A stretch of DNA of 32,000 bases from Candidatus Thorarchaeota archaeon (GTDB taxonomy: Archaea > Asgardarchaeota > Thorarchaeia > Thorarchaeales > Thorarchaeaceae): contig PRDJ01000018.1 of assembly GCA_003345555.1 (NCBI GenBank), positions 1 to 32,000 of the forward strand, in the 5' to 3' direction. This document shows, in pieces, positions 12,499 to 24,716 of this stretch. How positions within the stretch are numbered: the stretch's first letter is position 1; each line of letters opens with the position of its first letter. The notes beneath the pieces were generated by a model, which was not told where the DNA came from, searched no databases, and was given only the letters and a program-made list of their open reading frames with translations. The position numbers were made by a program, and so were the translations under genes.

Positions 12499-13416
12499 AT
12501 GACAAGTGTCGATCCACATCCTGACTTCGTTAGGGCCGGTCGCATTGCAGCTAGAGTGCTGTCAGAGGTAGTCGAGAAGGTCAAGCCGGGAGAGAAGATT
12601 CTAACTATATGTAATCTTGCTGAGAAGAAGATACTTGATTACGGCGGCGGGTCGGCAGGCATTGCTTTTCCATGCAACGTTTCACTGAATCAGCAAGCTG
12701 CACACTATACCAGTCCGTACGGAGACACGTCGGTGCTGCCTGAGAAAGGTCTTGTGAAAGTAGACCTAGGTGCTCAAGTCAATGGCCACATCTCAGACAC
12801 GGCAGTCACAGTCGACCTTGACGGTTCTTTCCAGCGGTTTGTGAGCGCGACAGAGGAAGCACTGGATGCTGCTATCGCCGCGATAAGACCTGGAATCAGC
12901 TTGGGTGATGTGGGGGCAATCATAGAGCGAGCGATAAGAAAGCACGGCCTAAGGCCAGTGCATCAGTTGTCAGGTCATCAGCTGAAACCATGGATCCTTC
13001 ATGCTGGCAAGAGCGTACCCAATGTCGGTGTAAGACACAGCGAACGAATCGAGGTGGGCGAGACATACGCTGTAGAGCCATTCTCAACAGATGGTGACGG
13101 CACCGTAAGGAATACCGAAGCTGCTTTCATCTTCTCTAATGTAATGAGCGAGAACCCGAAGGTTGATGGAAAGGCTCGAGAAGTGCTGAACAAGGCTCGT
13201 CAGAGATTCGGCACTCTTCCTTGGGCCTCCCGGTGGCTTCACGAGAGTTCCTTTGACGTTGTTCCAATCATTCGGGCGCTTGTCCGTATTGGAGCCGTTA
13301 GACAGTACCTTGTCCTTGTTGAAGGCAAGAACGGGATGGTTGCACAATCCGAGCACAGTCTATTCGTGAGTGATTATGGCGCCGTAGTAACGACTGCACG
13401 CAACAAACAGGATTGA
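12499..13416 (+). CDS. map: Type II methionine aminopeptidase, paralog 1
   Basis: FPCN..AAHYTSP, KVDLG..GHISDTA, GHQL, YAVEPF, QSEHS; all five metal ligands present. Confidence 0.93.
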   Translation: MTSVDPHPDFVRAGRIAARVLSEVVEKVKPGEKILTICNLAEKKILDYGGGSAGIAFPCNVSLNQQAAHYTSPYGDTSVLPEKGLVKVDLGAQVNGHISDTAVTVDLDGSFQRFVSATEEALDAAIAAIRPGISLGDVGAIIERAIRKHGLRPVHQLSGHQLKPWILHAGKSVPNVGVRHSERIEVGETYAVEPFSTDGDGTVRNTEAAFIFSNVMSENPKVDGKAREVLNKARQRFGTLPWASRWLHESSFDVVPIIRALVRIGAVRQYLVLVEGKNGMVAQSEHSLFVSDYGAVVTTARNKQD

Positions 13417-13520: not shown

Positions 13521-14417
13521 ATGGGTTTGGCTCCTCTGCCGGCTCAGCTTCAGGCGGGAAAGATTGCTTCTCGCGTCCTGAAGGAGACTGTAGATCAAGT
13601 CAAGCCGAGGGCAGGGATACTCAATCTCTGCAGACTTGCTGAAAAGAAGATCATAGAATATGGCGGCAGACCTGCTTTTCCATGCAATATATGTGTCGAC
13701 AATATCGCGGCGCATTACACGTCGCCTCGAGACGATCACTCCGTCATACCAGATTGCGGACTGGTGAAAGTTGACATCGGCGTTCATGTTGACGGGTATA
13801 TCATTGATACTGCAAGAACTATCGATATTGATGGCACTCTTGAGGGATTTGTGTCGGCCACTGATGATGCTCTTGGCGAGGCGATTAGCATGATTGCGCC
13901 CGGAACCCCCCTAAGTGAAGTGGGCGATAGGATTGAGAGGGTAATCAAGACCTATGGCTTAAGACCGGTTAAGGAACTCACGGGGCACAGCATATCGAGA
14001 TACACACTACACGCAGGAAAGACTGTGCCCAATCATAGGACTCACGGAAGCACGCAAGCAGAAGCTGGCGATTGCTATGCAATCGAACCATATGCAACAA
14101 GTGGGTCTGGCATATCAGAAACTAAGAATGCTTTCATCTTCTCAAACACAGGTCTTGACAAGACCCTTGAAGGCATGGCCGAGAAACTCAGACTGCATTT
14201 GAGAGAGAAATACGGGTCTCTTCCCTTTGCTTCCAGATGGGTACAAACCGGGACAAAGGAAATAGATGTATCGGGACTGCTTAGGGTTCTGTTGAGAAAT
14301 AGGGTCATCAGGGCCTACCCTGTCCTAGCAGAGAAGAAGGGACGACCCGTAGCTCAAAGCGAGCATACAATCTTCGTGTCGGAAAAGGGCGCCGTTGTAC
14401 TCAGTCAATCAAACTAG
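13521..14417 (+). CDS. map: Type II methionine aminopeptidase, paralog 2
   Basis: AFPCN..AAHYTSP, KVDIGVHVDGYIIDTA, GHSI, YAIEPY, QSEHT; all five metal ligands present. Confidence 0.93.
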   Translation: MGLAPLPAQLQAGKIASRVLKETVDQVKPRAGILNLCRLAEKKIIEYGGRPAFPCNICVDNIAAHYTSPRDDHSVIPDCGLVKVDIGVHVDGYIIDTARTIDIDGTLEGFVSATDDALGEAISMIAPGTPLSEVGDRIERVIKTYGLRPVKELTGHSISRYTLHAGKTVPNHRTHGSTQAEAGDCYAIEPYATSGSGISETKNAFIFSNTGLDKTLEGMAEKLRLHLREKYGSLPFASRWVQTGTKEIDVSGLLRVLLRNRVIRAYPVLAEKKGRPVAQSEHTIFVSEKGAVVLSQSN

Positions 14418-14789: not shown

Positions 14790-15914
14790 TCAGAGACCGA
14801 TTCCCATTGTATTCCCGATTCCCGCGAGCACGATTTTGTCTCCGGGCTTGGTGCGTTTGAGTATAGCCTCCCTGATGCGGTCGATTACATCAGGGATAGC
14901 CTCGAGGACTTTCTTCTGCATTACTCCGACCGCCGCGGCTTCATCCTCCTTGACGACAAAGGCTTCGAGGGCAATGCCATTCTGGGTGGCCGTTTCTTCT
15001 ATCGCGTGTTTCTCTGGACCCGGATCTCCTATCGCCGCTCCAGTGCCCTCCGAGACTCGTCCGAGATCCTCGCCCTCAAGTTTCAAAGCCGCATCTACTG
15101 TGATTATGCGCGTGATTCCCCCGCTATTCTGCTCTACGAGCGTCTTCACGGCGAAACCCGGCTTGCCCACTGTGCCTCCGGGGCCGGTAGCACGCAGAGC
15201 ATACACAGTTCTTCCCTCTACTTGTACGGGGTAGTAGCCGACTTCGCGCCCAATCTCGTTCACGTAGGCGTCAGGGCCCGCTCCGTATTTCCTAGCAAAC
15301 TTGGTTACCACAAGTGGCCCAATGCCGTCACCGATGGGCTTTCCATCGGAGAATGCTTCGACAGAGTCGTAATATGCCTTGGCCATCCTCAATAGATCTG
15401 GCATCTGCATCTGTATCTGCATTATCATAATCTGGCTCCCTGTCTTCTTGCCGAGAAGATAGAAGTGCCTAACAACCCTGAATATCAGTGACAGAACCTG
15501 AGTTACTTCCATGGTGTTCTCCAGGTTCTGGTACGTACTCGTGGTTGCATTGGGGGCCAGCTCTCTCACGAATTCCTGAAACCTGTCTCTTCTATCATCT
15601 AGCAGGTGGTCAAGACGCTTGAGGACTCCTGCTGGATCCAAGTCAACCGGCATGATTGTGAAGAAGTCAAGCCAGCGGTCAATACCTTTGGTGACATCTG
15701 CTTCACTCTTGCCGTATTGCTTGAACGTAGCAATGGCGGAATCTCTGGAATCAATGGACATCTCCTTGAGCTCGATCAGTCCCGACTCAATCTGTTTCAG
15801 CCACTGCCACATTTGGAATTTTGCACCGTAGAGGCTGAATATCAAGATGAAAGCATAGAATGCTATGTTTAGTAGCCAGCTGAACTGGCTAAGATCCACG
15901 CCACCTAGCTGCAT
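14790..15914 (-). CDS. DUF1512 family protein (N-terminal membrane anchor, helical region, C-terminal alpha/beta domain)
   Basis: PVDLDPAGV, VVRHFYLLGKKT, PIGDGIGPLV, GPGGTVG, IITVDAALKLEGE, GAAIGDPGPEK, GIGNTMGI recalled as DUF1512 motifs; map neighbourhood is consistent. Confidence 0.82.
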   Translation of the reverse strand: MQLGGVDLSQFSWLLNIAFYAFILIFSLYGAKFQMWQWLKQIESGLIELKEMSIDSRDSAIATFKQYGKSEADVTKGIDRWLDFFTIMPVDLDPAGVLKRLDHLLDDRRDRFQEFVRELAPNATTSTYQNLENTMEVTQVLSLIFRVVRHFYLLGKKTGSQIMIMQIQMQMPDLLRMAKAYYDSVEAFSDGKPIGDGIGPLVVTKFARKYGAGPDAYVNEIGREVGYYPVQVEGRTVYALRATGPGGTVGKPGFAVKTLVEQNSGGITRIITVDAALKLEGEDLGRVSEGTGAAIGDPGPEKHAIEETATQNGIALEAFVVKEDEAAAVGVMQKKVLEAIPDVIDRIREAILKRTKPGDKIVLAGIGNTMGIGL

Positions 15915-16023
15915 TTACATCACCGGCAAGACCCATGGTAGCTCTTTAATAGTTTCTATCTGTGAAATAATGAAAACATCACCATACGCAACGAGTCGAG
16001 GCACCAAGTCTGTGAAGAGAGAA

Positions 16024-16142
16024 TGTGGCAGCTGATAGGCCTGTCACGGGCTCGCGCACCGCACATGTCCTATCACGATAGTTGGCTTAACTTCGGAGAT
16101 CGGAACGGGATCCGGTGAACCCAGCTATCTGTGGCCGCCATC
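16024..16142 (-). rRNA. rrf: 5S rRNA
   Basis: Minus strand reads GATGGCGGCCACAG...CACCGGATCCCGTTCCGATCTCCGAAGTTAAGCC...GCTGCCAC; helix I TGGCGGC/GCTGCCA; about 119 nt; ends uncertain by 2 nt. Confidence 0.93.
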
Positions 16143-16165
16143 GAGCCGTTTCTCGTTGGTTCTTG

Positions 16166-16172
16166 TTTTAAA
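16166..16172 (-). promoter_or_regulatory. TATA box of the 5S rRNA gene
   Basis: TTTAAAA about 24 nt upstream of the 5S 5' end. Confidence 0.65.
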
Positions 16173-16372
16173 CGTTGCTCTCCGACTGTATGCAAGTCTA
16201 TTAGGCAATAGCAGTAAGCACCAAGAACACAGCACAGAGTCCAGCCGTTGGCCGCCTCACTTCTTGTATCAGCTGACAGGCGACGGCTACTGTTGCTTGG
16301 GATTATGAAAAGGCTCTTCCTATGTGAGCAGTCTCCTTCTCGCTATTGAAGAAGGACCAGAAGTGGTGGAAC

Positions 16373-16512
16373 TGGTGGGGACGCAGGGATTCTCCCGCAG
16401 CCGCGCAATGCGACTACGCTTTGAACCCTGGATCGACGAGTTTCACTTCTTTATGACCCCTTGGTTCATAAGATCTGGAGCCCGTTGCCTTTCCGGTCTG
16501 GGCCACGTCCCC
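16373..16512 (-). tRNA. trnW: tRNA-Trp(CCA) with two introns (33 nt at 37/38, 16442-16474; 30 nt at 59/60, 16390-16419) and encoded CCA
   Basis: Acceptor GGGGACG/CGTCCCC plus ACCA, D arm GCC/GGC, anticodon stem ACGGG/CTCGT with loop CT-CCA-G|A, T stem CAGGG/CCCTG with loop TTCAAA|T; removing both inserts gives a standard 77-nt cloverleaf. Confidence 0.92.
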
Positions 16513-16555
16513 GGGTTTGTTCCATCGTACGGCTCGGAGATTCGTTATTGATTTA

Positions 16556-16571
16556 ATTCTTGCGCAAGAAT
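16556..16571. promoter_or_regulatory. Perfect 16-bp palindrome in the divergent trnW/rnhB promoter region
   Basis: ATTCTTGCGCAAGAAT abutting a TATA-like TTAAAT on the minus strand (16551-16556). Confidence 0.5.
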
Positions 16572-16622
16572 CATCGCTTTCTGTTGGTATATCGTGAATG
16601 AAGGATAGCACGACAGTAATAA

Positions 16623-17333
16623 GTGCCGCAGCCTCAGGATAGAGTCATGAGAGAAACGGGACCAGGTCTCCGGGGCACCGCAGGTATCGATGAGGCAGGC
16701 CGGGGGCCAATGATTGGTCCCCTTGTTGTCTGTGGTGTGCTCGTACAGCCAGAGTCTATAACTGAACTCCAGCGAATTGGCGTTCGAGATTCAAAGACCC
16801 TGACTCCCAAGCGTCGTGTCGAACTTGCAAAGAAGATTCGAGGTATTGCAGACAGAATCAGTCTCAGACGGATCTCCGCAGCCAGAATTGATGATTTGAG
16901 AGCCAAAGGGGTGACGATGAATGAGATCGAGGTTCGGGCATTTGCATCGATTCTTCGTTCTCTTCGACCAGACAAGGCATTCATCGACGCAGCAGACATC
17001 AACGCCCAGAGGTTTGGCGTCCTGATTGGTGAAAAAAGCGGTCTGGTGTCGCTTGGCTGCAGCATAGTTTCAGAGCACTTTGCAGATTCTACTTATCCAG
17101 CTGTCTCTGCGGCATCCATAGTCGCAAAGGTAGATCGTGACAACCGCATCAGAGAGCTACAGAAGAACTATGGGGCATTCGGCTCTGGTTATCCGTCGGA
17201 TTCCAGAACTGTTCAGTTTGTTCGTTCCTTTGTTGTCGACAAGACGCCACTACCTGCAATAGTGCGAAAAAGCTGGAAGTCCGTCGAGAGAATCCTGAGG
17301 GAGAGCAAAGGCGAGCAGATGCGGCTAGGCTAG
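16623..17333 (+). CDS. rnhB: Ribonuclease HII
   Basis: GIDEAGRGPMIGPL, DSKTL, IDAAD, SAASIVAKVDRD, GSGYPSD; ATG 16647 is an alternative start; C-terminal QMRL resembles a reduced PIP box. Confidence 0.95.
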   Translation: MPQPQDRVMRETGPGLRGTAGIDEAGRGPMIGPLVVCGVLVQPESITELQRIGVRDSKTLTPKRRVELAKKIRGIADRISLRRISAARIDDLRAKGVTMNEIEVRAFASILRSLRPDKAFIDAADINAQRFGVLIGEKSGLVSLGCSIVSEHFADSTYPAVSAASIVAKVDRDNRIRELQKNYGAFGSGYPSDSRTVQFVRSFVVDKTPLPAIVRKSWKSVERILRESKGEQMRLG

Positions 17334-17340
17334 GACTAGT

Positions 17341-18303
17341 CTATATTCCTGACCTTTCCTCGATAATCCTCTTTAGTTCACTTGGCTTATCAATCTCGTC
17401 GAGTTCTAGCTGCCTGATAACAGGGAGGTCGGAGACCTGCTCCTCCGCCTTTCCTTCTTCGACTACTATTATCGCGCTCGATTCCGCAACTTTGGAAACG
17501 CTCTTCAGTATCTCCACGCGTTTGTGCAAGTTCAAGCTCTTGAGAGAGCCAATACTGGTCAATAGCGGCGGTCCTTCTTCTTTTGCAGCCACATGGAAAG
17601 GCGCCCTGTCAGTCCAGAGCACTTTCATTCCGAGCCTCTCAAAGAACTCATTCACACGTTTCTCAAGACCCGGGATATCCCTTGGAAGTCTTGACCGATC
17701 AAGATGCTTGCGTCCAACCGGCTTCCTGAGTATGTCTATTGGGATGATGAGGTCGGTCTCAAGCACTTCCTCTAGCCTTGCGGCTACTTCCGAACTAACA
17801 TCCATCTCGTCCTTTTCGTAGGCAAGAATCGCTCTTGTAGAAACCTCCACGCACTCCGCAAGCTGTTCCTTTGTCATTCTGCGTGAATTGCGCGCTTCTC
17901 TTAGTCTGACACCATCGATGGCAACAAACCTTCCTCCTCTCTGAATGAACTCTCGGGGAGCTTGTCCGTCGGTCGTCACGCTATGAAAGCTTGGAGGCGT
18001 CACAGTGAACACGCCATATCTTTTGTAGGCCGTCCCGTCTTCCAGAACGCCCCTGCGCGCTCTCTCGCCCACTACTAAGGCAGTGGCATTGAAGAACAGC
18101 GCTACCTGTTGAAGAGCAACGGCGTCGTCTTTCGTCAGGGCATCGATGTTTGAAAGGACCTTTACAAGGATGAGTTGCTCTCCTTTACGTGCCACCAAAT
18201 CGAAGCAGCTGGGTCTCACGTCACACTGTGATGAGAACTCAAACCCAGCCTCCTCTAGGTTCGCCATGACCTCACGCATCAGCTGGTTTCGAGTGACAGT
18301 CAT
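17341..18303 (-). CDS. Archaeal HTH transcriptional regulator (COG1395-like; central Cro/C1 HTH flanked by PD-(D/E)xK-like domains)
   Basis: PSCFDLVARK..LILVKVLSNID, LREAR..MTKEQLAECVEVSTRAILAYEK, RAPFHVAAK; start ATG 18303 preferred to 18336. Confidence 0.85.
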   Translation of the reverse strand: MTVTRNQLMREVMANLEEAGFEFSSQCDVRPSCFDLVARKGEQLILVKVLSNIDALTKDDAVALQQVALFFNATALVVGERARRGVLEDGTAYKRYGVFTVTPPSFHSVTTDGQAPREFIQRGGRFVAIDGVRLREARNSRRMTKEQLAECVEVSTRAILAYEKDEMDVSSEVAARLEEVLETDLIIPIDILRKPVGRKHLDRSRLPRDIPGLEKRVNEFFERLGMKVLWTDRAPFHVAAKEEGPPLLTSIGSLKSLNLHKRVEILKSVSKVAESSAIIVVEEGKAEEQVSDLPVIRQLELDEIDKPSELKRIIEERSGI

Positions 18304-24598: not shown

Positions 24599-24716
24599 TG
24601 GCGCCGAGGAGGAGATTGATTCGGCCATGACGGAGTGTCAGGACCTTTGAACTCCTGAGTGCAGAGCACACCGGTTTTCAAGACCGGCGCCTTAATCCGG
24701 GCTTGGCTACCTCGGC
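24599..24716 (-). tRNA. trnS: tRNA-Ser(TGA) with a 30-nt T-loop intron (58/59, 24617-24646) and encoded CCA
   Basis: Acceptor GCCGAGG/CCTCGGC plus GCCA, D arm, anticodon stem CCGGT/ACCGG with loop CT-TGA-AA, long variable arm GTGC-TCT-GCAC, T stem AGGAG/CTCCT; removing the insert gives 88 nt. Confidence 0.92.

Follow-up and report, generated by a model that had tools for sequence, protein, structure and literature searches.

A tRNA-Trp(CCA) gene with two probable introns, one in the T-loop, in a Thorarchaeota-like archaeon

The locus at 16373-16512 is most probably (probability of about 0.88) the only gene for tRNA-Trp(CCA) in a Thorarchaeota-like archaeon, giving a minus-strand precursor of about 140 nt with two protein-spliced introns of the bulge-helix-bulge (BHB) type. 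The window, i.e., the whole 32,000-nt stretch of DNA that was analyzed, contains the gene in the following parts:

16373..16512, minus strand: whole tRNA-Trp(CCA) gene, 140 nt, with the 3' CCA encoded at 16375-16373; recognized by Rfam (RF00005), by ARAGORN (spliced form) and by orthologues.
16475..16512, minus strand: exon 1, tRNA positions 1-37 (acceptor 5' strand, D arm, anticodon stem 5' strand, C32 U33 C34 C35 A36 G37).
16442..16474, minus strand: intron 1, 33 nt, at the canonical 37/38 site, relaxed BHB; an intron occupies the same site in every orthologue.
16420..16441, minus strand: exon 2, positions 38-59 (A38, anticodon stem 3' strand, variable loop CGAUC, T stem 5' strand CAGGG, U54-A59).
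16390..16419, minus strand: intron 2, 30 nt, in the T-loop at 59/60, BHB; exactly absent from ten orthologues with an intact T-loop.
16373..16389, minus strand: exon 3 (U60, T stem 3' strand CCCUG, acceptor 3' strand CGUCCCC, discriminator A73, CCA).

The interval 16376-16512 (minus strand) matches the Rfam tRNA family (RF00005) with 33 bits, compared to a gathering score of 29, and the alignment accommodates inserts of 37 nt in the anticodon loop and 31 nt in the T-loop. ARAGORN returned nothing for the unspliced locus, with or without its intron mode. The warning in the original prediction that default annotation could miss such a gene is borne out by both programs, Rfam being barely above its threshold here and a multi-locus Rfam scan having missed all eight of the T-loop-intron orthologues scanned. 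Once 16474..16442 and 16419..16390 are excised, the resulting 77-nt sequence is called tRNA-Trp(cca) by ARAGORN and a complete cloverleaf is restored. The two-intron gene proposed beforehand agrees with our analysis in coordinates, strand, intron lengths and sequences. The spliced molecule has a perfect acceptor stem of 7 bp with G1-C72, A73, the encoded CCA, G18G19, an anticodon loop CUCCAGA, a variable loop CGAUC and a T arm CAGGG-UUCAAAU-CCCUG; the only flaw in the cloverleaf is a mismatch, C13.A22, where relatives have U13-A22. A BLAST search of the mature form gave 100% identity over mature positions 1-39, and this match overruns exon 1 by two bases because intron 1 starts alike (AU vs AC, with A38 shared). 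A DNA contig from a second run spans 15900-17400 and carries the tRNA-Trp sequence unchanged, and the inserts are therefore genomic. A 5S rRNA gene (16023-16142, minus strand) lies 230 nt downstream on the same strand. A 5S gene also neighbors tRNA-Trp at 10 of 17 related loci that were scanned, as well as at loci L001 and L004, and in view of this recurrence the two genes may be co-transcribed.

The T-loop intron fits BHB geometry exactly at 59/60. Its outer helix is the T stem (5 bp), its central helix, UUCA (U54-A57)/GGAG, is paired at three of four positions (U.G, U-A, C-G, A.G), and its bulges are A58 A59|G and A A|U60; the central pairing and the bulges AA|G and AA|U were thus found as had been claimed. 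The intron helix comprises 9 bp, including two U.G pairs, and is closed by the loop AUUGC. The helix that the original prediction had labeled outer is present, but with 9 bp, one above the 8 assigned to it. Minus-strand folding of the intron-bearing T arm yields -24.4 kcal/mol (z = -5.2), compared to -14.8 kcal/mol (z = -2.3) for the plus strand. Only 7 of 100,000 shuffles of the intron attained at least three central pairs plus a helix of at least nine pairs at the exact boundaries.

The intron at 37/38 has the right BHB geometry and good outer and intron helices, the latter being UCUUAUGA/UCAUA(A)AGA with one bulged A. It was placed in the relaxed BHB class because only two of four positions are paired in its central helix CUCC/AGUG, which is how it had been described beforehand. 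An intron is present here in all orthologues, with lengths of 30-82 nt. A 5' AUCU together with a GGGGUCA element (or CGGGUCA/UGGGUCA) is kept in 20 genomes of the family; the UCA of this element has its partner upstream in short introns and downstream in long ones, and the GGGG is complementary to C32-C35. The element could, for example, pair with C32-C35 and thereby guide folding or modification. However, we consider it unlikely that the AUCU...GGGGUCA element has a role beyond splicing and that the tRNA-Trp locus offers a finely graded series by which gains and losses of introns could be dated.

The euryarchaeal guide-bearing intron of tRNA-Trp contains C, D', C' and D boxes, and its guides, about 12 nt in length, are complementary to positions 34 and 39; this intron, whose box C/D guide directs Cm34 and Um39, was reportedly described by Clouet d'Orval et al. 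in 2001. The intron studied here resides in the same tRNA at the same 37/38 site, but it is only 33 nt long. No C/D-box family of Rfam reached E ≤ 1, whether at the window locus or at 17 orthologous loci, and inspection of the 33 nt by eye revealed no convincing C and D boxes. The longer orthologous introns (56-62 nt) show no consistent C/D layout either; their CUGA motifs lie at inconsistent distances from the conserved GGGG. A C/D guide in the anticodon intron was rejected on these grounds (no Rfam match and no consistent box spacing among orthologous introns), in line with the earlier expectation that this intron holds none.

Orthologues were collected by a DNA search of 40 related genomes, and their introns were delimited by spliced alignment to the mature sequence. 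The tRNA-Trp gene was recovered in 21 of these genomes, and the state of the T-loop was recorded as follows:

Uninterrupted T-loop (ten genomes): G005, G006, G007, G008, G015, G016, G020, G021, G022, G023.
T-loop insert of 29-31 nt: G003, G001, G002 (genus of the window); G013, G010, G018, G014 (same family); G035 (another family).

The ten uninterrupted orthologues fix the boundaries of the insert in the window. Six of the insert-bearing orthologues (G003, G001, G002, G013, G010 and G035) have the same 59/60 geometry, five of them with all four central pairs, and the inserts of G018 and G014 fit other registers. In an alignment of nine intron-bearing T arms (A2), 84% of the cells are paired, compared to 35-53% when the partners are slid. 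Ten pairs are changed on both sides, including seven of the nine intron-helix pairs, and no shuffle matched the observed covariation score. Compensatory changes among the relatives have preserved the structure of the T-loop intron.

Both tRNA-Trp introns are present throughout the genus (four genomes), the total being two in the window's genome and G003 and three in G001 and G002. The third insert (31 nt; L024:900-1071, plus strand, in G001 and L025:1438-1609, plus strand, in G002) is located at 31/32 or 32/33, five or six bases from the 37/38 intron, and no well-scoring BHB placement that preserves the mature sequence was found for it. Within the family, the T-loop intron has a patchy distribution, although its sequence is partly similar from one genus to another. 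In a quick ELP3 tree, the window's genome (G000), G003 and G001 group as a genus, with the family backbone unresolved, and the nearest neighbors of this genus are G015 and G016, both of which are without the T-loop intron. The ELP3 gene of the sister genome G003 (L062 and L071; contig C18, 25506-27108) appears as two overlapping pieces covering query residues 1-321 and 319-534, which points to a frameshift or to faulty assembly.

The host, a Thorarchaeota-like Asgard archaeon, is represented by a 93%-complete MAG of 2.28 Mb in 82 contigs. Its nearest fibrillarin loci belong to Thorarchaeota and Promethearchaeota MAGs, the closest being CAVSBO010000018.1 (84% identity). The original prediction had named an intact tRNA-Trp elsewhere, if it were the only expressed copy, as an observation that would speak against it; no second tRNA-Trp was found in this 93%-complete genome by ARAGORN, BLAST or a hairpin scan, the candidates from the latter two being rejected for want of tRNA-like flanks, and a DNA search found no second copy in any of the four genomes of the genus.

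A scan anchored on CCA and run over the entire host genome identified inserts of 29-31 nt in the T-loops of at least seven tRNA genes:

T-loop-insert tRNA genes of the host: Trp, Ser-UGA, Gln, Arg, Tyr, Lys, and a 142-nt two-intron gene on contig C10.

At least five of these genes lie outside the window (contigs C10, C34, C42 and C63), their inserts being located at sites from 56/57 to 59/60, and insert length is strikingly uniform across the tRNA genes of the host. The tRNA-Ser(UGA) gene is in the window (24599-24716, minus strand) and combines a long variable arm with a T-loop insert of 30 nt, for which the best fit is a shifted BHB with central helix GUUC/GAAU and a cut at 58/59; its Rfam score is low (21.9 bits) because only the 5' part was aligned. 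A likeness between the Trp and Lys T-loop introns (common GCGTAG) was set aside, as it was estimated to be at chance level for seven 30-nt introns. The window also includes an adjacent tandem pair of M24 metallopeptidase paralogues (12499-13416 and 13521-14417, both on the plus strand).

The original prediction held that a gene of this kind needs a broad-specificity splicing endonuclease, and it had proposed classifying the EndA architecture of the genome. Matches to PF01974 and PF02778 revealed two EndA paralogue genes in the host, both of which encode an N-terminal and a C-terminal domain. The catalytic residues Tyr, His and Lys are all present in the 188-aa protein, which among proteins of solved structure is closest to the catalytic subunit of Aeropyrum pernix EndA (3P1Z_B, E = 1e-45). 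Its lysine-bearing CSL/L1 stretch, GIRKPKSAEFDKP, aligns without gaps to DVEKPRGADFEGP of the A. pernix subunit, and the match to M. jannaschii EndA (1A79) starts only past this stretch. The 232-aa paralogue is without the catalytic His and looks like a structural subunit. Judged from these sequences, the host EndA is a predicted (alpha-beta)2 enzyme, built from two paralogues and bearing the crenarchaeal L1/CSL loop, as would suit the broad specificity that had been called for. An RtcB ligase is also encoded in the host genome. According to the mechanism proposed here, the predicted heterotetrameric (alpha-beta)2 endonuclease would cut the 3-nt bulges at 37/38 and 59/60, the L1/CSL loop of its catalytic subunit may confer the broad substrate range, and RtcB would ligate the three exons, with the CCA end presumably needing no addition as it is already encoded in the gene. 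We infer the removal of both introns in the cell, as well as its order. The contigs of a wetland metatranscriptome run (X7) covered a portion of the 5S rRNA gene as well as the RNase HII end of the stretch, and none of them covered 16155-17072, where the tRNA-Trp gene lies.

It might be argued that the locus is a decaying pseudogene that retains one or both inserts, with Trp being decoded by a copy missing from the assembly. The incompleteness of the assembly (93%, 82 contigs), the relaxed central BHB helices (three and two of four pairs) and the finding of no X7 contig over the gene would be compatible with decay, but the exons are undamaged and, unlike the diverging introns, conserved in 21 relatives, the intron helix covaries, the same two introns occur in all four genomes of the genus with no second copy by DNA search, and other essential tRNAs of the host are interrupted likewise. 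A pseudogene is therefore very improbable, and a functional gene with two BHB introns is the preferred reading.

Within this preferred reading, the T-loop intron might instead be cut at 57/58 or 58/59, in a shifted register as in tRNA-Ser. Because of the run of A residues (an AAA...AA repeat), cuts at 57/58, 58/59 and 59/60 yield an identical mature RNA, and only BHB geometry singles out 59/60 among these product-equivalent sites. The minimum-energy fold of the T arm (-24.4 kcal/mol) adopts the UUC/GAA register, the BHB register (-19.9 kcal/mol) being 4.5 kcal/mol costlier, and both tRNA-Ser(UGA) and the G018 orthologue fit a GUUC-based register with a cut at 58/59. It is only at 59/60, however, that two 3-nt bulges stand four positions apart with both flanking helices intact, and the fully paired helix UUCA/UGAA in G003, G001 and G002 constrains the boundary to this site. 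A shifted cut thus appears improbable, and 59/60 is retained as the site of the T-loop intron.

The original prediction had set multi-intron genes with non-canonical sites mainly in the Thermoproteales. The kind of gene was recognized correctly, but the context was not, since the host belongs to the Asgard archaea, in which such genes have already been published. Non-canonical and multiple tRNA introns of Thermoproteales were described by Marck and Grosjean (2003) and Sugahara et al. (2008), both as cited in PMC11291895. The present gene resembles them in its short hairpin introns outside 37/38, in its relaxed BHB motifs and in probably relying on a heteromeric EndA that has the crenarchaeal-specific loop; unlike them, it is found in a host of another phylum and in a mesophilic wetland setting, and no sign of introns being copied from gene to gene was noticed.

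In Asgard archaea, EndA types and disrupted tRNA genes were mapped by Kaneta et al. (2018; PMC5829648), including a Thorarchaeota genome, and the same study reported (alpha-beta)2 EndA with the L1 loop. In Atabeyarchaeia and Freyarchaeia, 92-95% of tRNA genes are interrupted, often at non-canonical sites (Valentin-Alvarado 2024, PMC11291895). A preprint by Goswami et al. (2026; 10.64898/2026.10.13.758758) described T-arm introns at canonical BHB motifs with repeated gains, and found the two-paralogue EndA to be widespread in Asgard. Our case is similar to the published ones in having several BHB introns per gene, including T-arm sites, together with a predicted (alpha-beta)2 EndA with the L1 loop, in the patchy, lineage-specific presence of introns and in genes missed by standard tools. 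It differs from the heavily interrupted Asgard cases (Atabeyarchaeia, Jordiarchaeia/Freyrarchaeaceae) in its Thorarchaeota-like host and more moderate intron load. The accessible parts of these accounts (PMC5829648, PMC11291895, 10.64898/2026.10.13.758758) do not name the tRNA-Trp locus of the window.

Interrupted tRNA genes and the L1-loop (alpha-beta)2 EndA are already known in Asgard, and the gene in the window is one more example of them; the tRNA-Trp finding raises no new question. It corrects the annotation, in that a genome seemingly without tRNA-Trp has one, and the same holds for several other tRNAs there. A well-documented Thorarchaeota case, with covariation, joins the published Asgard pairing of many non-canonical introns with an L1-loop (alpha-beta)2 endonuclease.
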